Positions 30,525 through 59,172 of a stretch of DNA of 64,000 nucleotides are shown here, one piece after another (positions within the stretch are counted from its first letter, which is position 1; each line of letters begins with the position of its first letter). The stretch spans positions 9,788 to 73,787 of IMG/VR virus record IMGVR_UViG_3300050500_000054; one strand, written 5' to 3'. Under the pieces are notes generated by a model. That model worked only from the letters and a program-made list of their open reading frames with translations. It searched no databases and was not told where the DNA came from. The translations under genes and the position numbers were made by a program. The DNA is from a virus.

Positions 30525-30525
30525 A

Positions 30526-30602: not shown

Positions 30603-30662
30603 AGAAACTTGTAGCAGGCATCTCACCTACTTAGTCTACCGCGAGGGTTATTTATGGTCGAA

Positions 30663-30755: not shown

Positions 30756-30756
30756 G

Positions 30757-30831: not shown

Positions 30832-30841
30832 ACGAAATGGA

Positions 30842-30859
30842 GGCCATCTTTCGATGGCC
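30842..30859 (-). terminator. terminator-like hairpin GGCCATC-TTTC-GATGGCC downstream of the intra-array small ORF
   Basis: perfect 7-bp stem 10 nt after the stop of 30869..31150. Confidence 0.4.
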
Positions 30860-30868
30860 CCCAAGGTG

Positions 30869-31150: not shown

Positions 31151-31212
31151 TCCGGTTCCTCCTAAGACAAACCGATTGACGGATTGGACGAATCACAGCA
31201 GGCGATTCAGAA

Positions 31213-31288
31213 TGGTGCTCCAACGAGGATTTGAACCCCGACTTAGGCGTTCGTAGCGCCTTGACCTGTCCAGTTAGTCGATCAGAGC
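31213..31288 (-). tRNA. tRNA-Arg(ACG): tRNA-Arg (ACG), CCA encoded
   Basis: anticodon arm AGGCG-CTACGAA-CGCCT, T-arm CGGGG-TTCAAAT-CCTCG. Confidence 0.6.
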
Positions 31289-31292
31289 AAAG

Positions 31293-31376
31293 TGGTGCCC
31301 CGCGTAGGAGTCGAACCTACACGTCTTGCGACACTGATTTCTAAGACCAGCGCGTCTGCCATTCCGCCAGCAGGGC
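31293..31376 (-). tRNA. tRNA-Leu(TAG): tRNA-Leu (TAG), type II, CCA encoded
   Basis: anticodon arm CTGGT-CTTAGAA-ATCAG, variable arm TGTCGCAAGACGT, T-arm GTAGG-TTCGACT-CCTAC. Confidence 0.6.
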
Positions 31377-31381
31377 ACAAA

Positions 31382-31456
31382 TGGTGGATTCCAGGGGAAT
31401 CGAACCCCTACTTTCTGCTTGCAAAACAGAAGTGCTCCCTTTATCACTAGGAACCC
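31382..31456 (-). tRNA. tRNA-Ala(TGC): tRNA-Ala (TGC), CCA encoded
   Basis: anticodon arm TCTGT-TTTGCAA-GCAGA, T-arm AGGGG-TTCGATT-CCCCT, acceptor GGGTTCC/GGAATCC. Confidence 0.6.
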
Positions 31457-31457
31457 A

Positions 31458-31532
31458 TGGTAGCGGATTAGGGAGTCGAACCCTACTGTCCCAGCTTATG
31501 AGACTGGCACCTACCCGGTCGGTCTATCCGCA
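31458..31532 (-). tRNA. tRNA-Met(CAT): tRNA-Met (CAT) (elongator, or Ile-lysidine type), CCA encoded
   Basis: anticodon arm CCAGT-CTCATAA-GCTGG; T-arm TAGGG-TTCGACT-CCCTA; 1-72 mismatch but no three consecutive G-C pairs in the anticodon stem, so not an initiator. Confidence 0.55.
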
Positions 31533-31538
31533 ACAAAG

Positions 31539-31617
31539 TGGTCGGGAATGCTGGATTTGAACCAGCGACCCCTCGTTTCCAAAACGAGTGGGAACGGCCA
31601 GACTTCCCCAATTCCCG
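31539..31617 (-). tRNA. tRNA-Pro(TGG): tRNA-Pro (TGG), CCA encoded
   Basis: acceptor CGGGAAT/ATTCCCG exact, anticodon arm CTCGT-TTTGGAA-ACGAG, T-arm GCTGG-TTCAAAT-CCAGC. Confidence 0.6.
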
Positions 31618-38305: not shown

Positions 38306-39148
38306 ATGAAACTGAAGCACGCGCTGCTCATCGTCCTCGCGGTCCTCAACACTGCCTGTATCTGGCGTGTCACACCAGACGCAGGTCAGGAGGCTGTCCT
38401 CACACGCAAGCCCTGGTTCTTTGGTAGTGGAGGCGTGGCGAGCACACCTGTGGAGACTGGGAGCAAGTGGATCTTCCAGTCCACCAATGTGGACTACGTG
38501 GGCATGCAGCCTCGCACCCTGGTCACTCACTTCGATGACATGATGTCGAGGGACGGCGTGCCTCTCGACTTCAATGCTGCATTCACCTATCGCGTGAATG
38601 ACAGTGTGTGTATGGTTGAGAAGTTTGGTGTGGCTGAGTACGAGTTCACCAACGCTGGACAGAAACTCTCTTGGCCTACGTGGTTCGGGAACAACCTCTA
38701 CAAACCACTGGAGACTGCCATCAGGCAGGCTGTGAGGAAGCATGGCATGAATGAGACTGCCATCGACACCACGGCCATCACGGATATCGACGCTGAGGTC
38801 ACAGCGCAGCTTATTGCTGAGCTGAAACAGACTGGCCTCTGCATCAATCTGTTGGAGTTCACGGTCGGCAAGGCCAACCCTCCCGATAGCGTGAAGAATC
38901 AGCGCATTGAGACTGCCGCACAGCAGCAGCGTGTGGAGACTGAGAAGCAGCGCAAGTTGGCTGAGGATCAGCGCCGTATGGGTGAGCTGGCGAGGGCTGA
39001 GGCTGACAACGCCTATCGACAGAACATGAACCTCACACCTGAACAGTTCGTCACTCTCCAGGCTATTCAAACACAGCGTGAAGTCTGCCTCAAGGGTGGA
39101 TGCACATTCGTAGCGAATGGTGTGAATGCTGTAGTTGGCGTGAGGTAG
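38306..39148 (+). CDS. SPFH/band-7 (stomatin/HflK/prohibitin-like) membrane protein
   Basis: N-terminal signal/anchor with Cys (LAVLNTAC); SPFH-like core ('TRKPWFFGSGG...DGVPLDFNAAFTYRV'); Gln/Arg/Glu-rich coiled-coil C-terminus. Confidence 0.5.
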   Translation: MKLKHALLIVLAVLNTACIWRVTPDAGQEAVLTRKPWFFGSGGVASTPVETGSKWIFQSTNVDYVGMQPRTLVTHFDDMMSRDGVPLDFNAAFTYRVNDSVCMVEKFGVAEYEFTNAGQKLSWPTWFGNNLYKPLETAIRQAVRKHGMNETAIDTTAITDIDAEVTAQLIAELKQTGLCINLLEFTVGKANPPDSVKNQRIETAAQQQRVETEKQRKLAEDQRRMGELARAEADNAYRQNMNLTPEQFVTLQAIQTQREVCLKGGCTFVANGVNAVVGVR

Positions 39149-39427: not shown

Positions 39428-39790
39428 ATGCTTAAGGTCATTGTTGATCGGCTGAAGTGGATCAGGGGTGAGGGTGTAAAAGCGTCGTTCCTCCTGAGGC
39501 CCGGTGATTACAAGATGTGCTGCATGGGATTTGCCTGTGAGGCTGCTGGTATTAGTAGAGAGAATCTCCTGAACAAAAAGGTTGTGACCGATGTAATTGA
39601 CGCGAGATGCGAAATCTCACACCCATTGCACGGGTTCTGCTCTCACTTAATGGTTGATGCCTTCGACAACACGGTTGCTGGTATTATTTACATGATCAAC
39701 GACAACGAGGCATTGACAGACTCCAAGCGTGAGTCCAGACTGATTGAGCTTGGTCGGATGGTAGACATCGACTTTGAGTTCATCAACTGA
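39428..39790 (+). CDS. hypothetical protein, paralog B of the EFIN pair
   Basis: 'DRLKWIRGEG...YKMCCMGFACEAAGISRENL...IDFEFIN'. Confidence 0.45.
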   Translation: MLKVIVDRLKWIRGEGVKASFLLRPGDYKMCCMGFACEAAGISRENLLNKKVVTDVIDARCEISHPLHGFCSHLMVDAFDNTVAGIIYMINDNEALTDSKRESRLIELGRMVDIDFEFIN

Positions 39791-40065
39791 TGCCCAAGGT
39801 CCTCAACATGCGTAACCTCAAAGGTCCTCCTGACTTGCAGGGGATCTATGTAGGTAGGCCCTCAGAGTGGGGCAACCCATTCTCGATTGGTAAGAATGGG
39901 ACGAGGGAAGAGGTCATGCAGCTGTTCAGGACATGGGTCATGCTAGATGCACAGACCCGCCTGAGGGAGAAGGCACGCACTCAACTACGAGGTAAGAACC
40001 TCATCTGCTGGTGCTGGCCTGCCGATTGCCATGCTGCTGTGTGGTTGGAGATAGCCAACTCATGA
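39790..40065 (+). CDS. DUF4326-family protein
   Basis: 'IYVGRPSEWGNPF...LICWCWPADCHA' pattern typical of DUF4326. Confidence 0.5.
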   Translation: MPKVLNMRNLKGPPDLQGIYVGRPSEWGNPFSIGKNGTREEVMQLFRTWVMLDAQTRLREKARTQLRGKNLICWCWPADCHAAVWLEIANS

Positions 40066-40204: not shown

Positions 40205-40654
40205 ATGATTGAGGTAAAGGGCAACCTGTGGACCTACAGCCCTGTTGATGTTCGTATCATCACTACCAATGGCTTTGTCAAGAAGAATGGCGAGGCTGTG
40301 ATGGGCAGGGGGTGTGCGCTTGAGGCAAAGCAACTATTCCCTGAGATAGCTAAGACACTAGGTGATCACATCACCAAGCAAGGTAACATCCCTGCCATCC
40401 TCATGACTGTCGAGGGTGAGTTTGAAACTTATCAGCTTGTATCTATGCCAGTGAAGCACACTTGGCATGAGGCTGCTGATCCACTGTTGATTGAAACCAG
40501 TGCGAAGATTCTCCGAGCATGGGCTGATTTGAATGACTGGGACACGATTGTGCTCCCTCGCCCAGGCTGTGGAAACGGTCAACTGCGGTGGGAGGACGTG
40601 AGGCCCGTGCTGGAACCCATCCTCGATGACAGGTTCCATGTGATTAGCTTTTGA
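40205..40654 (+). CDS. macro-domain protein (ADP-ribose binding/processing)
   Basis: 'VDVRIITTNGFVKKNGEAVMGRGCALEA' resembles the macro 'DAIVNAANxxLxGGGGVxxAIxxAAG' loop; C-terminal 'IVLPRPGCGNGQL' resembles 'IAFPxISTGxYG'. Confidence 0.45.
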   Translation: MIEVKGNLWTYSPVDVRIITTNGFVKKNGEAVMGRGCALEAKQLFPEIAKTLGDHITKQGNIPAILMTVEGEFETYQLVSMPVKHTWHEAADPLLIETSAKILRAWADLNDWDTIVLPRPGCGNGQLRWEDVRPVLEPILDDRFHVISF

Positions 40655-42411: not shown

Positions 42412-42426
42412 TTAGCGAAGTTGCTA

Positions 42427-42499
42427 GGACAGGTAGCTCAGCGGTAGAGCGCCCAGCTTGAGAGCTGGGAGGTCGGTGGTCCGAATCCACCCTAGTCCT
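42427..42499 (+). tRNA. isolated plus-strand tRNA-like gene with an 8-nt anticodon loop (CUUGAGAG) and an A-A acceptor mismatch
   Basis: canonical D-arm TA-GCTC-AGCGGTA-GAGC, fully paired anticodon stem CCCAG/CTGGG enclosing 8 nt, T-arm GGTGG-TCCGAAT-CCACC, acceptor GGACAGG/CTAGTCC. Confidence 0.4.
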
Positions 42500-42619
42500 A
42501 GCAACAATGTTGGGGGGCAGCTTAACATTCCCAGCGAGGCACTGCACACCTCACAGTGTAGTAGCGGTCGTAGTGTGGAGTTGCCTCCCAACGCCATTTC
42601 CCAATTCGGAGAGGTTAGC

Positions 42620-43063: not shown

Positions 43064-43240
43064 ATGTTCGACAGAGACGAATTCGTGAAGGATGTCAACG
43101 ATTACCTCGAGGACAACTACGGTGAGGATCCCCTCGAGAAACACGAGGAAGAAGAAGCTGTAGAGTCAGCTCTAGAATCTGGCAACTACAGCATCAAGGA
43201 CATCGCTGAGCACATCCTCGACATCCGGTGGGAGATATGA
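43064..43240 (+). CDS. small acidic protein
   Basis: MFDRDEFVKDVNDYLEDNYGEDPLEKHEEEE...; internal Met of ORF 43010..43240. Confidence 0.3.
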   Translation: MFDRDEFVKDVNDYLEDNYGEDPLEKHEEEEAVESALESGNYSIKDIAEHILDIRWEI

Positions 43241-44220
43241 GAGACACAGTGCCTTCGATGCTCATTCTCAGTGGCCTCCCTGCTAGTGGCAAATCGACCT
43301 ATGCCAAGAAGTGGGTGGCTGAGGAGCCAGGCGGTCGCTATCGCCTGAACTATGACGACCTCCGTCGAGAGATGTATGGCCCAGAGTTTGTGTGGAACCG
43401 TCTCCAGGAGGATCTCATGAAGGTCGAAGCAGTCAAGAGGGTGACTGCTGCGATAAACCTCGGGCATGATGTTGTGATTGACAATTGCAACCTCACCCCG
43501 AGGGTTCGAGATCACTGGCGCAACATTGCCAACAACCTCAGCGTCACCAATGTTGAGGAGCATGAACTGGACGTGCCTGTCAGAGAGTGTGTTCAGCGTG
43601 ACGAGCTGAGAGGTGACAACCGTGTGGGGAGAGCTGTCATTGAGAGGATGGCACTGTTCAATGGGCACATTGACTGGAAGGATCCAGAACAGTATGCCCA
43701 GAACATCAAGTTCGTAGTCGTGGATATGGATGGCACCCTCGCCAGCTGTCAGCATCGGGTGAAGTATCTCGATAAGAACTGGTGCCTCGCATGTGACCGT
43801 GCGAGTGAGCCAAAGTTCATGTCAGACAAGTGTGCTTGGTGTGGGACTGGCAACCTCAGGGGGAAGAAAGACTACCGTGGGTTCTTCGCTGGAGTAGCAC
43901 AGGATCCTCCAATCCCGGAGATTGTGGATCTGGTCCGCCTCCTAAGCATGGAGCACTACATCCTCATCGTCAGCGGTCGTCCCACTAGCGATGCGGGTAT
44001 CAGCACTGAGGAGTGGCTGAAGACAAACAACATCTCTTACAAGCACCTCTTCATGCGTAACGGTGGGGATCATCGTGATGATTTCATCGTCAAGCAGGAG
44101 ATTTGCGACCTCCTCCCAAAGGATCGAATCGCGTTTGTCCTCGACGATAGGGATCAAGTTGTGAAGATGTGGAGGGACAATGGAATCAAGTGCTTGCAGG
44201 TGGCTGATGGAAACTTCTAA
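43228..44220 (+). CDS. pnk: polynucleotide 5'-kinase/3'-phosphatase (T4 Pnk-like bifunctional)
   Basis: N-terminal P-loop 'ILSGLPASGKST'; C-terminal HAD phosphatase motif I 'VVVDMDGTLA' and later 'LDDRD'. Confidence 0.7.
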   Translation: MGDMRDTVPSMLILSGLPASGKSTYAKKWVAEEPGGRYRLNYDDLRREMYGPEFVWNRLQEDLMKVEAVKRVTAAINLGHDVVIDNCNLTPRVRDHWRNIANNLSVTNVEEHELDVPVRECVQRDELRGDNRVGRAVIERMALFNGHIDWKDPEQYAQNIKFVVVDMDGTLASCQHRVKYLDKNWCLACDRASEPKFMSDKCAWCGTGNLRGKKDYRGFFAGVAQDPPIPEIVDLVRLLSMEHYILIVSGRPTSDAGISTEEWLKTNNISYKHLFMRNGGDHRDDFIVKQEICDLLPKDRIAFVLDDRDQVVKMWRDNGIKCLQVADGNF

Positions 44221-45029: not shown

Positions 45030-45944
45030 ATGAGTAAACCAACCCTCGCTGCCATCGTGGCACGGATGCAGGTTCCTGAGCTGACTGAAGGACACAAGGC
45101 AATCATCAATCGTGCCCTCAAGCAGTATGACACTGCTATCGTCCTCTTGGGAATCAGTGGTGCCCAACAGCCAACCGTAAACAACCCCTACTCGTTCGCT
45201 CAGAGGGTGTCTGTCATTCGGAGGCATGCACCTCACATCCACATCTACCCACTGCTGGACCACCCGAGCAATGAGCAGTGGACGAGGAACCTCGACAGAT
45301 TCCTCAGCCTGACGTTCCCTGGATACGAGGTATCTCTACTCTGTGGTCACAATAGTGGTGCTGAGAATGCCTACAAGGCACATGGAGGTAGATTCACGGT
45401 AGACGCATTCGCTGAGAACAGTGGGCAGCGAGGAACCGCAGTCCGTGAAAGCATCAGAGAGAACAACAGTGTGGACTTCCTCCGTGGTATGGCATATGCT
45501 CTGAACCAGCAATTCCACAACCCGTACCCCACTGTAGATATCGCTCTCATCGAGGGTGAAAGTGTGTGGATGGGGCGGAAGGCTGAGGATCCACACAATC
45601 TGTGGAGATTCCCTGGTGGGTTCGTAGAACCAGGCATGAGCCTCGAAGCCACTGTTCGTAAGGAGGCGTGGGAGGAACTTGGAGTGTCGAACCTGACTGA
45701 TCCAGTCTACCTCGGATCTACGATGATCGATGACTACCGCTACAAAGATTCTCCTGAGAGCATCCTCACCAGCATCTTCGCATGCAGTCAGATGAGTGGT
45801 CCTCGACCGAAGGCTGGAGACGACTTGGACGAAGCCCTTGCCATTCCGCTAGAGAACATCTTCGCTGACCCGAAGAGGTTCGTGATCTCAAACCACATCC
45901 CACTGGTCCATATCATCAAACAGAAAACGGGAGCCGCACTGTGA
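45030..45944 (+). CDS. bifunctional NMN adenylyltransferase / Nudix hydrolase (NadM-Nudix, NatV-like)
   Basis: N-terminal nucleotidyltransferase 'TEGHKAII' (HxGH-like); C-terminal Nudix box 'GGFVEPGMSLEATVRKEAWEELGV'. Confidence 0.65.
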   Translation: MSKPTLAAIVARMQVPELTEGHKAIINRALKQYDTAIVLLGISGAQQPTVNNPYSFAQRVSVIRRHAPHIHIYPLLDHPSNEQWTRNLDRFLSLTFPGYEVSLLCGHNSGAENAYKAHGGRFTVDAFAENSGQRGTAVRESIRENNSVDFLRGMAYALNQQFHNPYPTVDIALIEGESVWMGRKAEDPHNLWRFPGGFVEPGMSLEATVRKEAWEELGVSNLTDPVYLGSTMIDDYRYKDSPESILTSIFACSQMSGPRPKAGDDLDEALAIPLENIFADPKRFVISNHIPLVHIIKQKTGAAL

Positions 45945-47305
45945 CAAACCTCCTCCTGACCGATAGCTACAAGCACAGCCACGCAGAGCAGTATCCTCCT
46001 GGCACCAGCAAGGTCTACTCCTACTTCGAGAGTCGAGGTGGGAAGTATGACGAGACTGTGTTCTTCGGGCTGCAATATCTCCTCAAGAAATACCTCCAGG
46101 GAGCATTCGTCAAGCTCGATGACATCTTCGCTGCTGACAAGATGCTGTCCTCACACTTCGGGAAGAAGTTCGACAAAGCCAAGTGGCTGCACATCGTCGA
46201 GGCACACGCGGGCAGGCTCCCTGTAAGCATCCGTGCGCTGCCTGAGGGAACCGTGTGTGGAAACGGCAACGCGATGATGACGGTAGAGAATACCTGTCCT
46301 CAGTGCTACTGGGTGACGAACTGGATTGAAACACTCCTCGTCCAGACGTGGTATCCCACTACCGTAGCAACACAGTCCCGATACATCCGTAAGATGATCT
46401 TCGACTTCCTCCAGGCCAACGGCACGCCTGAGGGAATCGGGTTCAAACTCCACGACTTCGGCTTCCGTGGTGTGTCCAGTGTCGAGTCAGCTGGCCTGGG
46501 AGGTGCTGCCCATCTGGTGAACTTCTCAGGAACCGACACCTTGGCTGCCCTCTACATCGCCAGTGAATACTACGGTGAGGCATGTGCTGGGTTCAGCATC
46601 CCAGCATCCGAGCACTCTACCATCACAAGCTGGGGCAGGGAGCACGAGGTTGACGCCTTCCGCAACATGCTGGAGAAGTATCCAGAGGGCCTCGTTGCCT
46701 GCGTGAGTGACAGCTTCGACATCTTCAAGGCATGTGACGACCTGTGGGGAACGCAACTGAAGGATCGCATCCTCGCTCGTCCAGGCACTCTTGTCATCCG
46801 TCCTGACAGCGGTGATCCAATCTCCGTCATCATGACGATGCTGAGCATCCTCGGAGAACGGTTCGGGTATGAACTCAACAGCAAGGGATTCAAGTCCCTC
46901 GACCCGCATGTCCGCATCATCCAGGGTGATGGCGTGAATGCAGTCACCATCATGAACATCATCAGTGCCATGCACGACCAGGGCTGGTCGGCTGACAACA
47001 TCGCATTCGGGATGGGTGGAGCACTGTTGCAGGACCTCAACCGCGACACCAACAGGTTCGCATTCAAGTGCTCCTCGGTGACTGTCAACGGGGAGGAACG
47101 CGACGTGTGGAAGGATCCAACCACTGATGCTGGGAAGATCAGCAAGCGTGGGAGGTTGGTGGTTCTGCCTACGGCTCATGGGTTGGCGACATTCCGAGAG
47201 AATGCAGCGAACATCACAGACAACCAGTTGCATGAGGTGTTCCGCGATGGACGGTTGTTGGTGGATCAGAAGTTCTCCGACGTTCGAACGAGAGCGAGGG
47301 GCTGA
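45941..47305 (+). CDS. nadV: nicotinamide phosphoribosyltransferase (NAMPT/NadV)
   Basis: N-terminal 'TDSYKHSHAEQYP' and 'GFRGVSS', 'GTDT' motifs typical of NAMPT; 454 aa; ATGA-coupled to upstream NMNAT gene. Confidence 0.7.
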   Translation: MTNLLLTDSYKHSHAEQYPPGTSKVYSYFESRGGKYDETVFFGLQYLLKKYLQGAFVKLDDIFAADKMLSSHFGKKFDKAKWLHIVEAHAGRLPVSIRALPEGTVCGNGNAMMTVENTCPQCYWVTNWIETLLVQTWYPTTVATQSRYIRKMIFDFLQANGTPEGIGFKLHDFGFRGVSSVESAGLGGAAHLVNFSGTDTLAALYIASEYYGEACAGFSIPASEHSTITSWGREHEVDAFRNMLEKYPEGLVACVSDSFDIFKACDDLWGTQLKDRILARPGTLVIRPDSGDPISVIMTMLSILGERFGYELNSKGFKSLDPHVRIIQGDGVNAVTIMNIISAMHDQGWSADNIAFGMGGALLQDLNRDTNRFAFKCSSVTVNGEERDVWKDPTTDAGKISKRGRLVVLPTAHGLATFRENAANITDNQLHEVFRDGRLLVDQKFSDVRTRARG

Positions 47306-50003: not shown

Positions 50004-50525
50004 ATGGACCGCACAATCTCAATCATCGCTGGCCTCATCATCGCTGCCGCCGTAGTCAAGGGCTGCTCGTCGTCTACGCCTGCGGCTCCGACTCCTCCAT
50101 CCCAGCAAACCGCCGTGGATGCCGTCCCAGCACCTGAGCCGTTCTGCCTCTCCTTCGCTCCGAAGCTGGAGGAACCCAATGTCCAGCAGAGTCAGGCTGG
50201 CCCGAGAGTTGAACTGGAGTATTACCCGATCCTCAACACCGTCACTGGTAAGCTGATCTCCCGCTACGAGGTCCTCTTCCAGCGAATGAGTTTTCAGAAC
50301 GTCTGGGAAGATGTATCCATCCCATACGTCCAAGTTGAGGTCGATCCAAACAGAGACAAGCATTTCATCTCATGGCTGATTCGCAACGACCCTGACGGTG
50401 AGGGACGTGGTGGACCGAATGGCACCTACCGTGCTCTAGTTCGTGCTCACCTGGGTGAGGAATGCCACCCTGCTCGTCGTCTAACTGACTGGGCAACCTC
50501 AGAGACATTCTCGGTAAGCCAATGA
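50004..50525 (+). CDS. lipoprotein
   Basis: 'AAVVKGC' lipobox then Pro/Ala-rich linker. Confidence 0.35.
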   Translation: MDRTISIIAGLIIAAAVVKGCSSSTPAAPTPPSQQTAVDAVPAPEPFCLSFAPKLEEPNVQQSQAGPRVELEYYPILNTVTGKLISRYEVLFQRMSFQNVWEDVSIPYVQVEVDPNRDKHFISWLIRNDPDGEGRGGPNGTYRALVRAHLGEECHPARRLTDWATSETFSVSQ

Positions 50526-51571
50526 CAAGCCCATACGGAACACTACACCTCGTAGCCAAGAACGGAGAAGTCGTGACCAGTTGGCACAGCTATCCATCGA
50601 TCTACAACCTCGGCCACAAGGCTATTGACAAGCTCCTCGACCGCCCTGTTCTGGTAGAGGAGAAAGTCGATGGCAGCCAGTTCAGCTTCGGTTACTTCCC
50701 CGATGCAGAACCCGGCCTCGAACTGAAAGTGAAGTCAAAGGGAGCTATCATCCATGTGGACGCGCCTCCAGCAATGTTCCGCAAAGCTGTGGAAACGGTT
50801 AAGAGGATCGCCACAGAGGTGGGACTACGCAGCGGGTGGACATACCGTGGAGAGGTCCTGGCGAATCCACACCACAACACTCTCGCTTACGATCGTGCGC
50901 CCACTGGGAACATCATCATCTTCGACATCAACACTGGGGAAGAGGCATACCTGGATTACGATTCGAAGGCCGAGGAAGCAAAGCGCCTTGGTCTGGAAGT
51001 CGTCCCGCTCGTGTTTCGAGGTATCGTTCCAAGTATTGAAGCCTTTCGAGAACTGATCGACAAGCCCTCGATCCTTGGCGGTCAGAAGATGGAAGGTGTC
51101 GTGATCAAGCCAGAGGATTACCTCTACTTTGGTCTTGACAAGAAAGTCCTCATGGGCAAGTTCGTGAGTGAAAAGTTCCGTGAGGTCCACGGAGCAAGTT
51201 GGAGGGCAGCGAATCCGACCACTGGAGATATCATCCAGGTTCTCGGAGAACGCTACCGCACCCCTGCACGGTGGAACAAGGCTATTCAGCATCTCGACGA
51301 GGCTGGTAAGCTGGAATACTCCGTGCGGGACATTGGTAAGCTGATTGGTGAGATCGGTCCTGACATCGAGCGTGAGTGCAAGGATGAAATCATGGAAGAC
51401 CTCTATGCCTACGCTCGTAAGCACCTCATCCGTCACTGGACCAGAGGGTTCCCCGAGCACTACAAGGAACTCCTCCTGGAGCGTCAGTTCGAGAAGTATC
51501 AGGAACCCCCAGACATCGCACCTCCTGGGGTGGAAGTGTTTGAACAATTCCCGGAGGAACCCAAGTCATGA
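50522..51571 (+). CDS. RNA ligase (Rnl2/DRB0094-like nucleotidyltransferase)
   Basis: adenylylation motif I 'EEKVDGSQF' (KxDG), downstream 'WTYRGEVL', 'EGVVIK', 'KFVSEKFRE' fit ligase motifs III-V. Confidence 0.6.
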   Translation: MTSPYGTLHLVAKNGEVVTSWHSYPSIYNLGHKAIDKLLDRPVLVEEKVDGSQFSFGYFPDAEPGLELKVKSKGAIIHVDAPPAMFRKAVETVKRIATEVGLRSGWTYRGEVLANPHHNTLAYDRAPTGNIIIFDINTGEEAYLDYDSKAEEAKRLGLEVVPLVFRGIVPSIEAFRELIDKPSILGGQKMEGVVIKPEDYLYFGLDKKVLMGKFVSEKFREVHGASWRAANPTTGDIIQVLGERYRTPARWNKAIQHLDEAGKLEYSVRDIGKLIGEIGPDIERECKDEIMEDLYAYARKHLIRHWTRGFPEHYKELLLERQFEKYQEPPDIAPPGVEVFEQFPEEPKS

Positions 51572-51774: not shown

Positions 51775-51912
51775 TGATGACACCAGAAGTATCGAACGCG
51801 CTGGCTGATCTGCTCTACACGCTGAACTTCGCCCTGAAGGCTGGGATGGTTGTTTTCCTCCTCGCTTTTCTAGCAGGCGTCATCTCCGGTGCTGTTGGTG
51901 GGGCTGCAGAAG

Positions 51913-52320
51913 ATGGAAAGAAAGGAGACGTTCGTGGCTAACCTCAACCCTGTCAAGGACTGCTGTGGGATTACGGAGATCGGGAATATCTCCATGCATG
52001 AAGATCCAGAGGATGTCCTCAAGGATATCTATCATCGGATCATCAACGGAGTGAACTACGACAACCCAGTCCAATACTCCAGGAAGAGGCGTCCGTTTTT
52101 CCTCTTCTCCGGTGTGACCACTCGGCATGTCATGGATCATGCCTCAAACCGACCTGACAACTACGGTCAGGCGCTGGAGGACTACATCCGTTCTCATGGG
52201 CTGGGTAAGGTCGTCTCCACCACACCCACCAAGAACTGGTCTGGGAATGATCTCAAGGTGTGGATCTGGACTGCTGATCTGTTTGCTCTGGAGATGTGGG
52301 GAAAGGAACGAGGACTCTGA
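51913..52320 (+). CDS. hypothetical protein
   Basis: internal Met MERKETFVANLNP of ORF 51889..52320. Confidence 0.3.
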   Translation: MERKETFVANLNPVKDCCGITEIGNISMHEDPEDVLKDIYHRIINGVNYDNPVQYSRKRRPFFLFSGVTTRHVMDHASNRPDNYGQALEDYIRSHGLGKVVSTTPTKNWSGNDLKVWIWTADLFALEMWGKERGL

Positions 52321-52579: not shown

Positions 52580-52948
52580 ATGCACAAGATTTTCGTATAC
52601 GGCACTCTCATGGCAGGCTGTGGCAATCACCGCCTCCTGAAGGACTCGAAGTTCCTCCAGGGCGGCCGAACGCTACCGCACTTCACAATGATCTCCCTCG
52701 GTGGGTTCCCTGGTGTCCTCCCAGACGGCAAGAATGCCATCGAAGGTGAGGTCTACGAGGTATCCGATCAGGACCTCATCCATCTGGATCAACTGGAAGG
52801 GCATCCAGACTGGTATCGTAGAACGCCGACACGACTGCAAGACGGCACGGAGGTGGAAATTTACCTCTACCCGGAAGCACCGCCTCGGGTTCATGTAATC
52901 GAATCAGGCAGTTGGAGACAGTATCGAGGAGGAGTGCATGGCCGTTAG
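52580..52948 (+). CDS. gamma-glutamyl cyclotransferase-like (AIG2/GGCT fold)
   Basis: 'KIFVYGTLMAGCGNHRLL' (YGTL...G) plus catalytic Glu candidate 'IEGEVYEV'. Confidence 0.6.
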   Translation: MHKIFVYGTLMAGCGNHRLLKDSKFLQGGRTLPHFTMISLGGFPGVLPDGKNAIEGEVYEVSDQDLIHLDQLEGHPDWYRRTPTRLQDGTEVEIYLYPEAPPRVHVIESGSWRQYRGGVHGR

Positions 52949-54146
52949 CAAACCCATGATGATCTACAGCGATAACGCCACTATCGGCTGTGATCCAGAA
53001 GTATTCGCCAGAGACAAGGAGGGCACGGTTGTGGCATCCGATGTCCTCATCCCTGCGAAGGGACTGTTAGTGGATGGAGGTTACGGTCTAGCATCTGTGG
53101 TTCGTGATGGTGTTCAGATTGAACTGCACCCTTCACCGACCTCGTGCCGAGCAAATGTCAGCAATAGTCTCCAGAAGTGCTTCAGGACACTTGCCAAGGC
53201 GGCCACTGAGAAGGGCCTCCAAATCTCCTTCGATCAGGTCGTGACACTGGACAAGAAGGCACTCGCTGGGATGTCTGAGGATGCTCAGCGCCTCCGGTGT
53301 CTCCCAAGCTTCAACGCCTACAACGCTGTCGGTCAGACAGTGGATGGCAAGAAGTATCGGAAGCGTAGTGGTGCTGGTCATATCCACGTCGGGTCCGGTG
53401 TTTTCGGTCCTGACAAGACTTACATCGATCACAACAAGGGCATCAAGGCATTCGACATGCTTGTTGGCATCCCTGCTGTCCTCTGCGATCGTGATCCAGG
53501 TGCTGCGGAACGTCGTAAGGTGTATGGCCTGGCTGGTGAATATCGCCTCCCAAGTCACGGTGTGGAATACCGCACCTTGTCGAACTTCTGGCTTCGCAAC
53601 TATGCCCTGTTCAGCCTCTTCGCTGGGATGGCAAAGATTGCACATGGGGTGGCGATAACTGAATACTACGTCAAGCGGCATGCATACATCTTCAAGGCAA
53701 CTGGGATGTATGACCGCTACCACGACAGGCCGATGGAAATCCTCATGGACGGTGTGGATGAGATGGACTTGCAGGATGCCATCAACCACAACGACTTTGA
53801 CCTCGCCCTGAAAATCTACGATAAGCACGTAGAGCCATTCCTCAAGACCGTAAAGTCTGAGTATGGCATCATGGGACAGCGGCAGTTTTCTCCGTCGAGT
53901 GGAAACCTCGACGAGTTCCGTCACTTTTTCACGAAGATCAAGGAAGAGGGCCTCGGTTACTGGTTCAAGGAAGAACCACTTCAGCACTGGCTTACGAAGC
54001 GTGAAGGGCACGGCACCGGATGGGAGGATGGCTTTGTACCCACAATCCGTGCTGACATGGCAGCTACGAAGAAGAAAATCATCAAGGTCGGAGCCAACGT
54101 GGCGAGGCTCCGAGATGCTCGTGGTCGATTCGCCAAAGTTGCATAG
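52938..54146 (+). CDS. glutamine-synthetase-like carboxylate-amine ligase (GCS2/YbdK-type amidoligase)
   Basis: N-terminal 'IGCDPEVF' (GxExE-like) and central 'GAGHIHVGSG' matching the YbdK 'GxHVHVG' motif. Confidence 0.5.
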   Translation: MAVSKPMMIYSDNATIGCDPEVFARDKEGTVVASDVLIPAKGLLVDGGYGLASVVRDGVQIELHPSPTSCRANVSNSLQKCFRTLAKAATEKGLQISFDQVVTLDKKALAGMSEDAQRLRCLPSFNAYNAVGQTVDGKKYRKRSGAGHIHVGSGVFGPDKTYIDHNKGIKAFDMLVGIPAVLCDRDPGAAERRKVYGLAGEYRLPSHGVEYRTLSNFWLRNYALFSLFAGMAKIAHGVAITEYYVKRHAYIFKATGMYDRYHDRPMEILMDGVDEMDLQDAINHNDFDLALKIYDKHVEPFLKTVKSEYGIMGQRQFSPSSGNLDEFRHFFTKIKEEGLGYWFKEEPLQHWLTKREGHGTGWEDGFVPTIRADMAATKKKIIKVGANVARLRDARGRFAKVA

Positions 54147-54155
54147 GGAGGTCAG

Positions 54156-54650
54156 ATGGAAACAAACGTAGTTGCAGAGGGTGGAGATGTGGTTATCTCC
54201 ACACGCCTTCGACGCACCAAAGATGGTCTGATGGTGAATGTCAAGGTTTCCCCAGAGGTGGAGGAACTATTCCGCACCTGGGGTGGGGCACGGACGGAGG
54301 AGTGTAAGCTCTATGGCAGGATGTGGAAGCCTGTCACTGAGACTCAGCAGCTCCAGCTGTGGCGATGCTTCCAGACGCATCACAACACCGGAGGACACTC
54401 ATCAACCCCAATCTTCTGGAAGGGCGGACGGCTGCCTATGGAGGATGGAATTGTTGACATCTCGTTCATTCGACTCGTAGGAGCGAGCAACCCTGAGGGA
54501 GTTACCTTCTACGTAGATACCCTCATTGGCTACTCTGAACTTGATTCCGTCGCGGATAAGATCAAGACAGCCACTGGATGGTTCTATGGCGAATTCGTCA
54601 AGCCTGTGGAACTGAAGATTGACGTGCAACTGTTGAATGGAGGACGCTAG
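54156..54650 (+). CDS. hypothetical protein within the amidoligase cluster
   Basis: 164 aa, ATG 8 nt after previous stop. Confidence 0.3.
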   Translation: METNVVAEGGDVVISTRLRRTKDGLMVNVKVSPEVEELFRTWGGARTEECKLYGRMWKPVTETQQLQLWRCFQTHHNTGGHSSTPIFWKGGRLPMEDGIVDISFIRLVGASNPEGVTFYVDTLIGYSELDSVADKIKTATGWFYGEFVKPVELKIDVQLLNGGR

Positions 54651-54655
54651 TTGCC

Positions 54656-55423
54656 ATGCCGAAGAATCGTGTCAAGAATGTAGGTGTTGAACTGGAGGGT
54701 GGTTGGATTAAGCCTCCCCAGCCACTACAGCGAGATGGTAGCCTGAAATTCCACGACATCGTGCATTACGAGGCAGGTCGTGGACTTGCTGGACCTGCTC
54801 CTGCTGTAGCTGCATTCAAGAAGCTCTACGTCACTGGTGCAGTGTTGGAGGAACACAAGATCCCTCAGGTAGGTGAGATCGTCAGTCCAATTCTGGAAGT
54901 TCCAGAAGTGGAGGACTACATCAGGACCAACTACCCTAATATCGTAAACGAAACCTGTGGCCTCCACGTCCACATGAGCTTCAAATACAAGCTGAACTAC
55001 CAGCGGCTGATGACGGAGGACTACACTCGGAAGATGGTAGTAGGGCTGATTGACTGGGCGAAGAGGAATGACCTCCCGAAGGATCACCCTCTCTGGCCAC
55101 GGTTGATGAAGCCAAACCACAACCACTGTGCTCATGTTTACCTCGGTGATAACCAGGTGACTATCGCCGGAAAGGATTACAACAGTCGAGGAACCAACTA
55201 CAGCCGGTATACAGCAATCAACTACTGTTGGGCACAGCACAAGACAGTCGAGTGTCGCCTACTCAGTATGTTTGACACGGCTGACCAAGCGGTGAGTGCG
55301 GTGGGTGAGGTGATTCGTATCACGAACCTCTTCCTCAGCAAGATCAAGAGTCGGGAGAAGAAGTTCAGTGTGGTGATCAAGCGCGGTGCAACCCTTGTGG
55401 ATCACCGTCGGATTCGAGTTTGA
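54656..55423 (+). CDS. second GS-like amidoligase (Amidoligase_2-type)
   Basis: N-terminal 'VGVELEGGW' (GxExE) and 'CGLHVHMSF' (HxH) motifs. Confidence 0.45.
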   Translation: MPKNRVKNVGVELEGGWIKPPQPLQRDGSLKFHDIVHYEAGRGLAGPAPAVAAFKKLYVTGAVLEEHKIPQVGEIVSPILEVPEVEDYIRTNYPNIVNETCGLHVHMSFKYKLNYQRLMTEDYTRKMVVGLIDWAKRNDLPKDHPLWPRLMKPNHNHCAHVYLGDNQVTIAGKDYNSRGTNYSRYTAINYCWAQHKTVECRLLSMFDTADQAVSAVGEVIRITNLFLSKIKSREKKFSVVIKRGATLVDHRRIRV

Positions 55424-55436
55424 GAGGAGACTGTCA

Positions 55437-56660
55437 ATGTGTGTGATTCTCGTAGCGCGTAAGGACATTCGGCCGTCGGAGGAAATGATCCAGTTGTCGT
55501 GGGATGCCAATCCACAGGGTGCTGGTGCAGCATGGAAGGATCCTGAGGGGCTGGTGAACTGGCGGAAGGGAATGACGCTGGAAGAGGTGCAGGAACTGAA
55601 CAAGAAGCTGCCCTTCCCGTATGTTCTACACTTCCGTGTGGCATCTGCTGGAATGCTGAAGATCCCTGGCCTCAACCACCCGTTCCCGGTGGAGAAAGAT
55701 GCGTCGATCTCCACTGTGGGTCGATTCGTCGGTGATGTCGTGTTCCACAATGGCCACTGGGCCAGCTGGAAGCACGAAATGAAGGACCTCGCTGCTAAGG
55801 GTGGTTGGAAGATCCCGGAGGATCCGTGGTCTGACAGTCGTGCAATGGCCTGGGTTGCGAGCCAGATCGGTGTCGGATTCCTCGAATTGCTCGATGAGAA
55901 GATCGTCCGTTTCGGTCCTGATGGTGTCCATATCATGGGTCATATGGGTCACGGTGGGTGGGACGAGGTGGATGGGATCCTCGTGTCGAATAGGGGGTGG
56001 GAAAAAAGAGTCACTCACTCGAACTATACGACGCCTCCTGCGTCCATGTGTGGGGTAGAGAGGGCCGGGGGTACCTCTCGCAACACGACCTTTCAGAGAT
56101 CGACAGGAGAGCTTGCTCAAACAGAAGGAAGCGAGGGAAATCAGCAAAAAGCAGTACAAGCGACGAATCAAGCTGCTACGGGCGGAGATCAAAACGGCCA
56201 AGAAACGGTAGACACTTACGAGAACGAGGAACTCCAGAAGTGGCTTCGGGATCATCCTCACAACGCTCACAGACGGCATGTGGCGTTGAATGAGGAGAAG
56301 TGCCAGGTGTGCTTCACAAAGGCTGCAAACGTGTTCGATGGTCCGAATCAGAGATTCGGCCGTTGCTGGAGCTGCTATGATCGGCAGAAGAAGGCTCCGA
56401 TCATCGAGGCAGCTATCGTGGTTCCTGCTAGTGTGGCGATTGCAGCGAAGTATCACCGCTGTGAGCAGTGCAAGATCAACAGTGCTGCAACACAGTTGAC
56501 AGACGGGAGCAAGAAGAGGATCTGTGGAACCTGCTGGAGGCAGTTGGGGAAGCCGGATGTGGAATACAACGGTATGAAGATCACAGAAGGCAACAACAAC
56601 ACAGAGTTGGAACGTCGCAGGGCTGATGCAGCACGAGGTATCAGTCGAGTGGTTGGGTAG
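55437..56660 (+). CDS. class-II (Ntn) glutamine amidotransferase-like protein with C-terminal zinc ribbons
   Basis: start 'MCVILVA' (Cys2 nucleophile after Met removal) with SD GAGAGGAGA; C-terminus has four CxxC pairs. Confidence 0.5.
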   Translation: MCVILVARKDIRPSEEMIQLSWDANPQGAGAAWKDPEGLVNWRKGMTLEEVQELNKKLPFPYVLHFRVASAGMLKIPGLNHPFPVEKDASISTVGRFVGDVVFHNGHWASWKHEMKDLAAKGGWKIPEDPWSDSRAMAWVASQIGVGFLELLDEKIVRFGPDGVHIMGHMGHGGWDEVDGILVSNRGWEKRVTHSNYTTPPASMCGVERAGGTSRNTTFQRSTGELAQTEGSEGNQQKAVQATNQAATGGDQNGQETVDTYENEELQKWLRDHPHNAHRRHVALNEEKCQVCFTKAANVFDGPNQRFGRCWSCYDRQKKAPIIEAAIVVPASVAIAAKYHRCEQCKINSAATQLTDGSKKRICGTCWRQLGKPDVEYNGMKITEGNNNTELERRRADAARGISRVVG

Positions 56661-56668
56661 GAGGAACA

Positions 56669-57517
56669 GTGATCAGAATCGACGAACAGGAAGCAGGAGT
56701 CATCAAAGCTCTCCTCATCGCACGAGGGGATCAGTATGACTTGGATCTGGTAGAGAAGATGGACCAGAGGCGGAAGTTCAACGACGAGACACTTCTGGAT
56801 GTTCTGGTCAAGCTGGTCAGTGGTCGGTTTGTCACCAATAGGGTGAGTAACGCCACTGTCAAGGCGCTCAGAGGTGCGCTGTTGACTCCGAAGGAGTTGG
56901 TGGAGGCGATAGCACAGGATGAGAGCTTCAAGTGTGCAGGATGTGCTCAGGAGCTGTCTGAGGCAGAGATGGTCAGCGTGGATGGCACGTTGCTCTACTG
57001 TGCCGCCTGTGTGAGTCCTCTCACCGTGCGTTGCCCAGGTCACGGTAAGCCTATTGCACTTCCAGAAGGTGCAATTAAGCGAATCGTGAGGAAGACAATC
57101 AAGGAGTGTGCTCAGTGTGCTAATCCTGAGAGGACACCTGCTCCTGAGGTTCAGGATGGTCCTGATAACAGAGAGCCGCCCGTGTTTAACGCTGCACCTG
57201 GATTTGGTGGCTGGTTGGGAGTAGGCACGCCAGCACCGCTTGATGAAGGATTGCGGGATGCAATAGAGCGGCAGAATCGGTTGGATGAGGAGTTCTTCAG
57301 ACGTGAACAGGAACGTGAGGAGCTGAGACGTAGGGTTGTCATTGGTGGCAGGCGTATGGGTCGTGGTGCGCGTGATCATGCGGAGCCTGAGCCTCAGACG
57401 CTTCGTCCTCCAGATCGTGCATGGGCTACCATCGCAATGCAGCATCGTACAGAACCATTGGCCTACGATATTGAAACCCCGGAGCCAGCAGCACAGCCGC
57501 CGGAGGAGCGAGAGTAA
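56669..57517 (+). CDS. zinc-ribbon protein (CAGCAQ...CAAC, CPGHG, CAQC)
   Basis: 282 aa with central Cys cluster and Arg/Glu-rich C-terminus. Confidence 0.3.
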   Translation: MIRIDEQEAGVIKALLIARGDQYDLDLVEKMDQRRKFNDETLLDVLVKLVSGRFVTNRVSNATVKALRGALLTPKELVEAIAQDESFKCAGCAQELSEAEMVSVDGTLLYCAACVSPLTVRCPGHGKPIALPEGAIKRIVRKTIKECAQCANPERTPAPEVQDGPDNREPPVFNAAPGFGGWLGVGTPAPLDEGLRDAIERQNRLDEEFFRREQEREELRRRVVIGGRRMGRGARDHAEPEPQTLRPPDRAWATIAMQHRTEPLAYDIETPEPAAQPPEERE

Positions 57518-57912
57518 TGCGGATAGAGCAGTTCGATCAGATCCTCAACTCTCGAACAGTTCCTCCGAATGAGTTGATGGAGCAAAACCTGGATGAACTT
57601 GAGAAGCGTGTAGAGGAATATCTCAAGGAGGCAAAGAAGAGGGAAGCGGAGGAGGAGCAGGAGGATCTCCAACAGATCAGGGAAGGCAAGGAGAAGGACG
57701 AGTTCGAGGATGACTTCTTCGATCCAGAGGATTTCTACGAAGCCCTGGATCTGTTGGAGAGTTGTGCAAAGGTCCTGAAGAAGCTCATGAGTGATGATCC
57801 GAATGAGGAATATCCGCCAGCGTTCCTGAACAAGCTGTCGAACCTCTCTACGGATTGTTACTCGTTCGTCAATCGTTTCATCGTCAACAAGGATGAGGAG
57901 TCAGAGGTATGA
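57517..57912 (+). CDS. acidic coiled-coil protein
   Basis: 131 aa, Glu/Asp-rich. Confidence 0.3.
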   Translation: MRIEQFDQILNSRTVPPNELMEQNLDELEKRVEEYLKEAKKREAEEEQEDLQQIREGKEKDEFEDDFFDPEDFYEALDLLESCAKVLKKLMSDDPNEEYPPAFLNKLSNLSTDCYSFVNRFIVNKDEESEV

Positions 57913-58796
57913 TCTACGTATTTCGTCAGGCCAGCAGCAAGGGTGCTCGTGAGTTGTCGGAGAGTATCGCATGGGGACGACGGGCACGGAATGAGGATCT
58001 CCTCCGCCGTCGGGTGAAGGCTGGGGATCTGGTCATCGCGTGGGGCGATCATGTGAACCTACCGGATGGCGTGTTGGCGTTGAACAACGTCCCTCTCTCG
58101 AACAAGTTCACGGATGCGGAGAAGCTGAAGGCTGCCGGTGTGCCTACGGTGGAAGTGTCGAGGGTGATGCCTCAGCCAGTTCGCCAGACGGCTCCTCCTG
58201 ATCCTGCGCTGAACGCATTCGCTCGGTTGCTCAACACTGTAGACCTCCGTGGTTTGGGCCACAGGAGTTTGGAGGTAATCCGACAGATCACTGATGTTCA
58301 GGAAAGGATCAACACCTATCTGGAAGCTGTTGCTCAGCCTGCTCCTGTTGCTCCGCCTCCACAGGTAGTGGGCGAGTGGGTTGGCCGTAACAACAACCAC
58401 GTCGGTGGGAATGATCTCCTCAATCCACCCCGTCTGCCTGACTTCTACGTGAAGAAGGAAGTCCTGAAGGGTGAGGTTCGTATCCACAGCTTCCTCGGCA
58501 AGTCAATTCGAGCGGGTGTGAAGGCTCCTCGTGAAGGTGTCGAGCAGCATCCGTGGGTGCGGAGTTTTGACGGAGGTTGGCGTATCGTGTATGACAACTT
58601 CAAGTCAAAGGGTGCCCAGCGTGAACTCGCAGCGAAGGCTGTGGAGGCACTTGGGTTGCAGTTCGGTGCAGTGGACATCGGGATCAAGGAGGATGGCAGT
58701 CTGATCGTGCTGGAAGTGAACAGAGCGCCCGGTCTTGAAGGTGGGACGGTTACGGCCTATGCGGGTGCAATTCAGCAGCATCTGGAGACGGTATGA
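57909..58796 (+). CDS. ATP-grasp ligase (RimK/GshB-like)
   Basis: C-terminal 'FGAVDIGIKEDGSLIVLEVNRAPGLEG' is the classic ATP-grasp Mg/ATP-binding segment. Confidence 0.6.
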   Translation: MIYVFRQASSKGARELSESIAWGRRARNEDLLRRRVKAGDLVIAWGDHVNLPDGVLALNNVPLSNKFTDAEKLKAAGVPTVEVSRVMPQPVRQTAPPDPALNAFARLLNTVDLRGLGHRSLEVIRQITDVQERINTYLEAVAQPAPVAPPPQVVGEWVGRNNNHVGGNDLLNPPRLPDFYVKKEVLKGEVRIHSFLGKSIRAGVKAPREGVEQHPWVRSFDGGWRIVYDNFKSKGAQRELAAKAVEALGLQFGAVDIGIKEDGSLIVLEVNRAPGLEGGTVTAYAGAIQQHLETV

Positions 58797-58951
58797 ACGA
58801 GTCCAAGACGAGGAAGATTCGTCAGTGTTGGGAGTGTGGAGGCAAAAGCCTCCGCACTGCCGCAGAGTTGATGGACCATGCGAAGGTCTGTAAACGCGTG
58901 AAGGCGCTGGGGTTGGAGGTTCCTCAGATTGTCCTCACGGATGGAGATCAG
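58793..58951 (+). CDS. small zinc-ribbon protein
   Basis: MNESKTRKIRQCWECGGKS...CKRVK; about 52 aa; hand-translated. Confidence 0.25.
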
Positions 58952-58953
58952 CA

Positions 58954-59172
58954 GTGAGAGCATTCCGGTTAGTGCGGAAAGAGGATGTTTCAGGAGTGTC
59001 TGGAACTGGAGTTGTTGCGGAGGGAGTGGAGTTCCATGATGGACAGGTTGCAGTGAGCTGGTATGGACGCTATCACTGCGTTAGTATTTGGCCGTCTATC
59101 AAGGATGTAGAGGCCATTCATGGGCATGAAGGCAGGACCACTGTAGAGTGGGCAGAGAGGGAGATGTCATAA
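58954..59172 (+). CDS. hypothetical protein
   Basis: 72 aa. Confidence 0.3.
   Translation: MRAFRLVRKEDVSGVSGTGVVAEGVEFHDGQVAVSWYGRYHCVSIWPSIKDVEAIHGHEGRTTVEWAEREMS

Follow-up and report, generated by a model that had tools for sequence, protein, structure and literature searches.

A divergent, expanded amidoligase cassette in an uncultured phage: a conserved two-gene core and its possible gamma-glutamyl chemistry

The window analysed here is a stretch of 64,000 nucleotides (nt) from the IMG/VR virus record IMGVR_UViG_3300050500_000054. Its source is an uncultured phage with a genome of about 77 kb, and the terminase shares 22-26% identity with the terminases of T5-like and Vibrio phages. Between positions 52580 and 58796 the + strand carries eight tightly packed open reading frames (ORFs) in one orientation (Table 1). 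Five of them are predicted to encode enzymes: a gamma-glutamylamine cyclotransferase (ORF1), two glutamine synthetase (GS)-like ligases (ORF2 and ORF4), a class-II glutamine amidotransferase of the N-terminal nucleophile (Ntn) type (ORF5) and an ATP-grasp ligase (ORF8). Judged by its protein families and gene order, the block belongs, as a divergent and expanded version, to the amidoligase cassettes of the phiEco32, LUZ24, RIO-1 and Bjorn type. A previous description of the locus from its letters and ORFs (the sequence-only reading) placed eight co-oriented, mostly start/stop-coupled genes at these positions, and all are present. The seven proteins that it described are borne out, and a further gene, ORF3, had been left out.

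The junctions from ORF1 to ORF8 measure, in order, -11, +9, +5, +13, +8, -1 and -4 nt. Coupling persists 3′ of ORF8 through two more small ORFs, and a terminator-like site on the + strand first appears well beyond them. Since the coupling runs on downstream and no signals delimit the block, the eight genes belong to a longer unit on the + strand and not to a self-contained operon. The GC content of the block (0.53-0.54) is that of its surroundings. A blastn search of the block against the phage collection gave no match, and PADLOC matched no defence-system family. Metagenomic contigs with proteins 30-50% identical keep the same eight-gene order, so the linkage is not due to chance.

Table 1. 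Genes and other features of the cassette and its surroundings (window coordinates).
Feature	Position	Strand	Description
ORF1	52580..52948	+	gamma-glutamylamine cyclotransferase (GGACT/AIG2-like), predicted, 122 aa
ORF2	52938..54146	+	phiEco32-type COOH-NH2 ligase (GCS/GS-like carboxylate-amine ligase), predicted, long form, 402 aa
ORF3 (O3)	54156..54650	+	uncharacterised, 164 aa
ORF4	54656..55423	+	compact divergent Amidoligase_2 (GS-like) enzyme, predicted, 255 aa
ORF5	55437..56660	+	class-II (Cys-Ntn) glutamine amidotransferase with two zinc ribbons, predicted, 407 aa
ORF5, class-II domain	55437-56006	+	
ORF5, linker		+	low-confidence
ORF5, zinc ribbons	about 56301-56534	+	
ORF5, C-terminal tail	56616-56660	+	conserved
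ORF6 (O6)	56669..57517	+	zinc-ribbon protein, helical N-domain, disordered Pro/Glu/Arg-rich tail
ORF7 (O7)	57517..57912	+	small acidic helical protein, coupled translationally to the ATP-grasp gene
ORF8	57909..58796	+	RimK/R2K-like ATP-grasp ligase, predicted, 295 aa
O9	51889..52320	+	possible accessory gene, by association
Small ORF	58793-58957	+	coupled 3′ of ORF8
Acb5-family homologue	58954-59172	+	72 aa, coupled
Terminator-like site	60264	+	first 3′ of the block
SPFH/Band-7 protein	38306-39148	+	early arm
DUF4326 protein	39790-40065	+	early arm
Macro-domain protein	40205-40654	+	weak assignment, early arm
PNKP	43228-44220	+	polynucleotide kinase-phosphatase, tRNA repair
NUDIX-domain protein	45030-45944	+	overlaps the NAMPT gene by 4 nt
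NAMPT	45941-47305	+	NAD+ salvage
RNA ligase	50522-51571	+	RNA repair
tRNA array	28964-31617	-	23 tRNAs
tRNA-like gene	42426-42500	+	ARAGORN call, 4-base anticodon (tgag)

The conserved part of the block was defined by a census of loci, in which iterated profiles for all eight proteins were run over the six-frame ORFs of 88 sources, including four related metagenomic contigs and 80 viral contigs encoding ORF5 relatives. The amidoligase gene lies directly 5′ of the amidotransferase gene in 83 of 85 loci, and in 60 loci this pair is found without the other components. At two loci (L019 and L084 in the census numbering) a ligase of the PF14395 type stands at the amidoligase position before the amidotransferase. 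The adjacency and the substitution together define the conserved unit as a GS-like ligase plus an Ntn amidotransferase. This pair is the invariant core and the remaining enzymes are accessory, and different GS-like ligases can stand as partner to the amidotransferase. The full eight-gene order is found in the window and the four contigs and is near-complete in four other loci. The uncultured lineage of the window adds to the enzymes three non-enzymatic partners (O3, O6 and O7) and a family of small Cys-containing proteins (O9).

ORF5 begins with Met-Cys at 55437, a start that also appears in public gene calls as a protein of 407 residues. A GTG codon at 55386 was considered as an upstream start and rejected in favour of this one. 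The Cys that would serve as nucleophile follows the initiator Met directly in 35 of 38 relatives. Other invariant or nearly invariant positions are N25, G28, G30, H65, R67, H81-P-F83, H104-N-G106 and D133, besides C2 itself; they include Arg67, Asn105-Gly106 and Asp133, the residues for glutamyl binding and the oxyanion. ORF5 itself gives no direct amidotransferase match in Pfam, and nine of the 38 relatives match GATase_6 or GATase_4. Its N-terminal domain is modelled by AlphaFold with a pLDDT above 90. In Foldseek the model finds the glutaminase domains of GlmS, PurF and GFAT as well as the stand-alone enzyme EgtC, with E values of about 1e-5 and a probability of 1.0. The domain is thus predicted from its model to adopt the four-layer class-II Ntn fold. 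The C-terminal half holds two zinc ribbons, each of the form CxxC...CxxC, a region that shows no similarity to ORF6.

ORF5 has 124 metagenomic homologues. A scan of bacterial and archaeal genomes found no relatives of the family, which leaves it with no host or cellular context. Searches with tblastn of ORF5 and ORF4 against isolated phages gave no match, and BLASTP of ORF5 against its positional analogues in phages Bjorn and T5S1 yielded no significant match. ORF5 carries a conserved tail at its very end, (R/K)-G-I-x-x-(V/I)-G-x-(L/M). At L011 (9119-9307) and L014 (8927-9085) a tail of this type is carried by a separate mini-ORF after the amidotransferase gene. The tail may be a docking peptide or a substrate of one of the ligases.

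ORF4, the amidoligase of the core, is recognised through its family. As a single sequence it scores 18.9 bits against Amidoligase_2 (PF12224), under the cut-off of 22. Iterated family profiles match it at about 5e-68 to 2e-71 and tie it to 88 relatives, and 16 of 25 sampled family members match PF12224, the best at 2.3e-29. The invariant residues are E12-x-E14, D27, S29, E74, G102-x-H104, N189 and E199-x-R201. On these alignments ORF4 is homologous to PF12224 members and carries the GS-like ExE...H...ExR residues. A search of the PDB with the amidoligase-family profile returned noise only.

The two accessory ligases belong to different families. ORF2 matches COOH-NH2_lig (PF14395) with 43.7 bits (2.6e-11, cut-off 25) and phrog_3815 at 3.5e-33. 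Its invariant residues G17-x-D19-P-E21, E62, H148, D173, R203 and E210-x-R212 form a GCS-like set of acidic, His and Arg positions, in which D19, E21, E62, H148, E210 and R212 correspond to metal and phosphate ligands; the sequence alone finds no match in the PDB. ORF8 matches phrog_2599 at 7e-25 and TIGR00768 at 1.5e-8. Alone it scores 19.2 against Pfam RimK, just under the cut-off of 21, a family that 11 of 16 ORF8-family members match. The ORF8 family profile finds RimK and Ddl structures in the PDB (7e-8), and RimK and LysX are its best relatives. Invariant residues are K66, E189, R191, D256 and E269-x-N271, comprising the D...ExN metal motif and nucleotide ligands.

ORF1 is assigned by its matches to GGACT (PF06094) at 7e-28 and to phrog_2520 at 1e-23, and E. 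coli YtfP and human GGACT (3JUB) are its best sequence matches in the PDB. The YGxL motif (YGTL) and D70 and E73 of LDxxE are invariant in 10 relatives, Glu73 being at the position of the catalytic Glu. Enzymes of the GGACT family act on free gamma-glutamyl amines. Locus L007 has no cyclotransferase beside its cassette, and there a Peptidase_M19 dipeptidase and an ATP-grasp gene lie together upstream (1392-2288). The Peptidase_M19 dipeptidase family, like the cyclotransferase, belongs to the gamma-glutamyl cycle. By alignment, active-site residues are intact in all five enzymes (ORF1, ORF2, ORF4, ORF5 and ORF8). No cassette enzyme matches an NCBIfam equivalog.

The protein assignments of the sequence-only reading are upheld by these results. 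It had named a GGCT-fold enzyme, a YbdK/GCS2-like ligase, a second GS-like amidoligase, an Ntn amidotransferase with a Met-Cys start and CxxC knuckles, a separate zinc-ribbon protein, an acidic protein and a RimK/GshB-like ATP-grasp ligase. The GS-like, Ntn, ATP-grasp and GGCT folds, on whose recovery in profile searches it had staked the call, were recovered by profile, family-level or structure-based tests.

The three remaining genes of the block show no sign of catalysis. O3 has no match in Pfam, PHROG or the PDB, where the profile search gave noise. Its family comprises 931 representative clusters in a library of 1.84 billion proteins and nearly always abuts the start of the amidoligase gene. 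R20 and G24 are the sole invariant residues and neither looks catalytic; an AlphaFold model built from 7 sequences is unusable (pLDDT 47). O3 is probably a non-catalytic partner of the amidoligase.

O6 finds no match among the family profiles of Pfam and PHROG. It has nine relatives, every one within an extended cassette, and these share M1, R3, E76 and three Cys pairs (C89-x2-C92, C111-x2-C114 and C147-x2-C150). The C-terminus is not conserved. A short motif, (W/Y/F)-D-I-E-(T/A)-P, recurs in the disordered tail (57370-57390) and in the equivalent tails of L004 and L007. O7 has an isoelectric point (pI) of 4.2, within a range of 4.1-4.4 among relatives, and a DFWEAxxLL motif common to the family. 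It has no Cys pairs and no invariant residue. Its C-termini are acidic and variable (...ESEV, ...KEEQ, ...GDEG and, in L006, ...EEEEE). In L004-L006, L008-L012 and the window, the ORF directly 5′ of a basic ATP-grasp gene is small and acidic; in L014 such an ORF lies one position farther 5′. Homologues of O3, O6 and O7 are not detectable in cassettes of the LUZ24, phiEco32 and Zobellviridae types.

The O9 family is associated with the larger cassettes. At 12 loci, every one with components beyond the core pair, one or two copies lie no more than 8 kb from the cassette (for example L012 6345-6872 and L007 10267-10686), and some sit inside it. Two motifs characterise the proteins, CCGxxEL near the N-terminus, which holds an invariant Cys, and LGxV...WxWxP near the C-terminus; they have no credible match in Pfam or the PDB.

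Related gene sets are common in phages. With ORF2 as the query, tblastn recovers 305 phage records, BASEL phages Bas86 and Bas87 among them, and in none does the identity exceed 32%. Gene contexts were inspected in a Zobellviridae phage, Pseudomonas phage Bjorn and Escherichia phage EK010 (Gordonclarkvirinae). All three have the order COOH-NH2 ligase, unknown protein of 180-210 aa, amidoligase. In Bjorn and EK010 the amidoligase is followed by the amidotransferase, one or more small proteins and the ATP-grasp ligase, and in Bjorn then by the cyclotransferase. The Zobellviridae phage has amidotransferase-type genes 5′ of the ligase and an ATP-grasp gene immediately after the amidoligase. UFV-P2, a LUZ24-like phage, has the Bjorn order in its gene table (PMC3890496). 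A set of seven such genes, with superinfection exclusion as its hypothetical role, was named the "peptidoglycan modification cassette" in phages phiEco32, 7-11, PA11, tf, MR299-2, LUZ24, PaP3, RIO-1 and CW02 (PMC5498523), and other speculative readings have followed (PMC10580990, PMC10945688). Two lines of one Pseudomonas phage that evolved independently each gained missense changes in the amidoligase gene as well as in the amidotransferase gene (PMC11450229), a finding that bears indirectly on function.

The window shares with cassettes of the phiEco32/LUZ24/RIO-1/Bjorn type the PF14395 ligase, Amidoligase_2, class-II amidotransferase, ATP-grasp and GGCT/AIG2 families. It also shares a place among early or replication genes and the core order on one strand of ligase, protein of ~160-210 aa, amidoligase, amidotransferase, small protein(s) and ATP-grasp. 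The sole difference in order from the phiEco32/LUZ24-type cassette is the cyclotransferase gene, at the 5′ end in the window. The proteins have diverged much further. ORF2 is at most 32% identical to its counterparts, and ORF4 and ORF5 lie beyond tblastn detection. The amidotransferase is short and bears zinc ribbons, whereas it spans 486-667 aa in the phiEco32/LUZ24-type lineages; the amidoligase has 255 aa in the window against 330-590, and the PF14395 ligase is long, with 402 aa against 263-315. O3 occupies the place of the protein between ligase and amidoligase. BLASTP detected no significant similarity of O3 to the analogues in Bjorn and T5S1, and hhalign of the O3 profile against those of Bjorn, EK010 and T5S1 detected no homology.

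A second relationship is with marine phages of the OM43-phage type (PMC10580990), which have the ORF4 and ORF5 families side by side as in the window. These pairs come without the PF14395 ligase, ATP-grasp, cyclotransferase, O6 and O7, and many have a TET-associated glycosyltransferase (TAGT)-like gene on the 5′ side. Across the census such a gene (PF20691, E value 7e-7) is found 2-6 genes 5′ of the amidoligase in about 41 minimal-pair loci, L022, L028, L041 and L051 among them. It is absent from the window and from L004-L012. The linkage could be a hint of DNA modification or could reflect a conserved genome order within one phage family.

Iyer et al. in 2009 reportedly defined the cassette by comparative genomics, and the papers with the peptidoglycan hypothesis cite that work and Hardies 2013. 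The literature searched gives no experimental product or target for any cassette member. This agrees with the statement in the sequence-only reading that such gene sets have been predicted by comparative genomics and lack an assigned product (PMC5498523, PMC10580990, PMC3890496, PMC10945688). The novelty claimed for the system was overstated. The cassette is common, is carried by laboratory-grown phages of the phiEco32 and LUZ24 types and has been flagged repeatedly since 2009; the window therefore adds a divergent variant and not a new system.

The cassette of the window lies in an arm of the genome rich in genes for counter-defence and RNA repair, and its neighbours recur in related contigs. 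The second gene 3′ of the ATP-grasp gene, translationally coupled, encodes a homologue of the Acb5 family of anti-CBASS nucleases; a related contig has a protein annotated as Acb5 (PF26761) with which it shares 57% identity. Upstream, the NUDIX and NAMPT genes look like the NAD+ salvage pairs reported to counter NAD+-depleting defences. Because the cassette stands among such genes, a role in host takeover or counter-defence is favoured over one in general metabolism. The RNA-repair genes of the window are those of PNKP and an RNA ligase, and in related contigs a Ro60/TROVE protein is encoded next to the RNA-repair genes (L004 1389-3020). The tRNA-like gene listed in Table 1 is on the strand opposite to the main tRNA array and overlaps the start of a DUF6197 ORF.

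The cassette is probably, with confidence somewhat above even, a divergent amidoligase system for ATP- and glutamine-dependent amide ligation and for tailoring of a gamma-glutamyl-type conjugate. Its genes would be co-expressed during infection within the long + strand unit. The pocket of the amidotransferase is predicted to bind a free glutamyl moiety through its alpha-amino and alpha-carboxylate groups, the ligand being glutamine or a gamma-glutamyl amide. In a complex with the adjacent GS-like ligase, which would form an acyl-phosphate, the amidotransferase would bring glutamine-derived ammonia to convert the carboxylate to an amide. The other two ligases would append amide-linked units, probably of glutamyl type, and the cyclotransferase would take off a gamma-glutamyl unit as 5-oxoproline. 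The net result would be a small gamma-glutamyl-type peptide conjugate, built and tailored on a substrate that the sequence does not specify. O3, O6 and O7 are probably scaffolds, carriers or regulators in the lineage of the window. A comparable logic operates in butirosin synthesis, where the ATP-grasp enzyme BtrJ adds a gamma-glutamyl group that the GGCT-fold enzyme BtrG removes as 5-oxoproline, with an acidic carrier protein involved. The likeness is in logic alone, as the window has no acyl-carrier-protein fold, no pyridoxal-phosphate (PLP) enzyme and no aminoglycoside genes.

Several points weigh against this proposal. The literature searched gives no biochemical data on any cassette member. 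ORF4 and ORF8 as single sequences each fall below their own Pfam cut-offs. A consensus scan for promoters and terminators inside the block found no site above shuffled expectation, so the block is not marked as a separate operon. The pointer to a role in host takeover or counter-defence comes solely from the neighbourhood, which suggests it. The remaining objections concern the amidotransferase itself. ORF5 lacks a fused synthase domain; the gene of a GS-like ligase adjoins in 83 of the 85 loci. EgtC, the closest stand-alone structural analogue of ORF5, hydrolyses a gamma-glutamyl amide and donates no ammonia, and the core pair could therefore be a ligase and a hydrolase.

This last alternative has a cellular model. 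In ergothioneine synthesis a GCS-type ligase (EgtA) is paired with a stand-alone class-II Ntn domain (EgtC) that acts on a gamma-glutamyl amide. The phage cassette shares the combination of a GCS-type ligase and an Ntn domain, and EgtC (4ZFJ-4ZFL) is among the best structural matches of ORF5. On the strength of the model, ORF5 could be an EgtC-like gamma-glutamyl amidohydrolase. The identity between ORF5 and EgtC is about 14%, and there are no homologues of EgtB, EgtD or EgtE. For the minimal pair, ammonia donation is preferred, since a ligase with a hydrolase that cleaves the very bond it forms would make a futile pair by themselves.

Remodelling of peptidoglycan precursors is an unlikely alternative. 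Stem peptides contain a gamma-glutamyl bond and undergo glutamine-dependent amidation (MurT/GatD, LtsA). The cassette might rebuild or amidate the stem peptide (L-Ala, gamma-D-Glu, meso-diaminopimelate, D-Ala-D-Ala) of precursors in the cytoplasm once infection has begun, for superinfection exclusion or lysis tuning, as proposed for the homologous cassette (PMC5498523, PMC10580990). The ORF8 family profile matches D-Ala-D-Ala ligases almost as well as RimK, yet there is no Mur-type ligase among the ligases of the cassette, and zinc-ribbon and acidic partners have no obvious role in precursor chemistry. The hosts of the carriers (Pseudomonas, E. coli, Vibrio) also differ in stem-peptide chemistry, and OM43 phages and mycobacteriophage Marvin are carriers too (PMC10580990). 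In most carriers, moreover, the amidoligase-amidotransferase pair stands alone.

Ligation of peptides onto a protein, be it O7, O6, the ORF5 tail or a host protein, is rather unlikely. It would resemble the action of RimK on S6, of LysX on LysW, or pupylation. As in the RimK-S6 and LysX-LysW systems, a RimK-like ATP-grasp ligase stands beside a small and strongly acidic protein whose C-terminus is itself acidic, and RimK and LysX head the relatives of ORF8, although the likeness to RimK is limited to the C-terminal half of ORF8. The conserved ORF5 tail, sometimes a separate mini-ORF, also fits this proposal. Phage R2K ATP-grasp relatives have been predicted to modify host proteins (PMC4431377). 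The difficulty lies in the acceptor. LysW, a small carrier built on a zinc ribbon, has a conserved Glu at its C-terminus (EDWGE), and Pup is a small disordered tag ending in GGQ or GGE. The termini of O7 vary and it has no zinc ribbon, while O6 has zinc ribbons with an unconserved C-terminus; lysine or arginine biosynthesis genes are also missing. O7 was rejected as a LysW- or Pup-like carrier because it has no conserved terminus. The non-enzymatic partners, as noted, go undetected in the other cassette types, and the substrates of GGACT enzymes are free gamma-glutamyl amines.

A bolder form of this proposal, for the lineage of the window, has a glutamyl or peptide chain built by ORF8 and the two GS-like ligases on O7, O6 or the ORF5 tail and edited or released by ORF5 and the cyclotransferase, with a product that neutralises a host defence or hijacks a host machine. 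It is doubtful. If true, such a conjugation machine would be the first virus-encoded non-ribosomal peptide-tagging system, as we know of no earlier one.

Hypermodification of nucleic acid, in which an amino-acid-derived group is put on a DNA or tRNA base or a carboxylated base is amidated, is improbable. The zinc ribbons of ORF5 and ORF6 could bind nucleic acid, the cassette comes after tRNA-repair genes in a phage with 23 tRNAs, and the TAGT-like gene lies upstream in many minimal-pair loci. Among the window ORFs scanned, however, there is no hydroxymethylase, TET/JBP protein, base kinase or transglycosylase. The window and the extended-cassette loci L004-L012 lack the glycosyltransferase-like gene, whose linkage elsewhere may be family genome order.

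Auxiliary metabolism of nitrogen or of the gamma-glutamyl cycle is very improbable. Here the turnover of glutamine and glutamate, or of a glutathione-like compound, would feed replication, as proposed for a homologous gene set (PMC10945688). The enzymes do parallel glutathione synthesis and breakdown (GCS-like ligase, GshB-like ATP-grasp ligase, cyclotransferase), and the dipeptidase near the L007 cassette fits the same scheme. They are far from housekeeping families, however, as seen in the missing equivalog matches and in the failure of ORF4 and ORF5 to find isolated phages by tblastn. The neighbours are counter-defence and RNA-repair genes and not metabolic ones, and non-enzymatic partners are unexpected for bulk metabolism. 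That the genes have no joint function and are independent morons adjacent by chance is already disfavoured and barely credible: operon-delimiting signals are lacking and accessory composition differs between lineages, but the order is kept across lineages that share no more than 32% identity, the two core genes adjoin at nearly all loci, start and stop codons are coupled, and both core genes changed in parallel in the evolved phage lines (PMC11450229).

With the COOH-NH2 ligase in 305 phage records and the core pair in many marine viral contigs, the cassette represents a sizeable enzymatic gene set of phages. As an uncultured metagenomic instance, the window is no more testable than the cultured carriers. 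It sharpens the question that they pose by setting an invariant two-gene core, an interchangeable GS-like partner and recruited non-enzymatic partners in an arm of the genome rich in counter-defence genes. If the product were a metabolite that counters defence or a protein tag, the cassette would represent a new class of phage-host chemistry.

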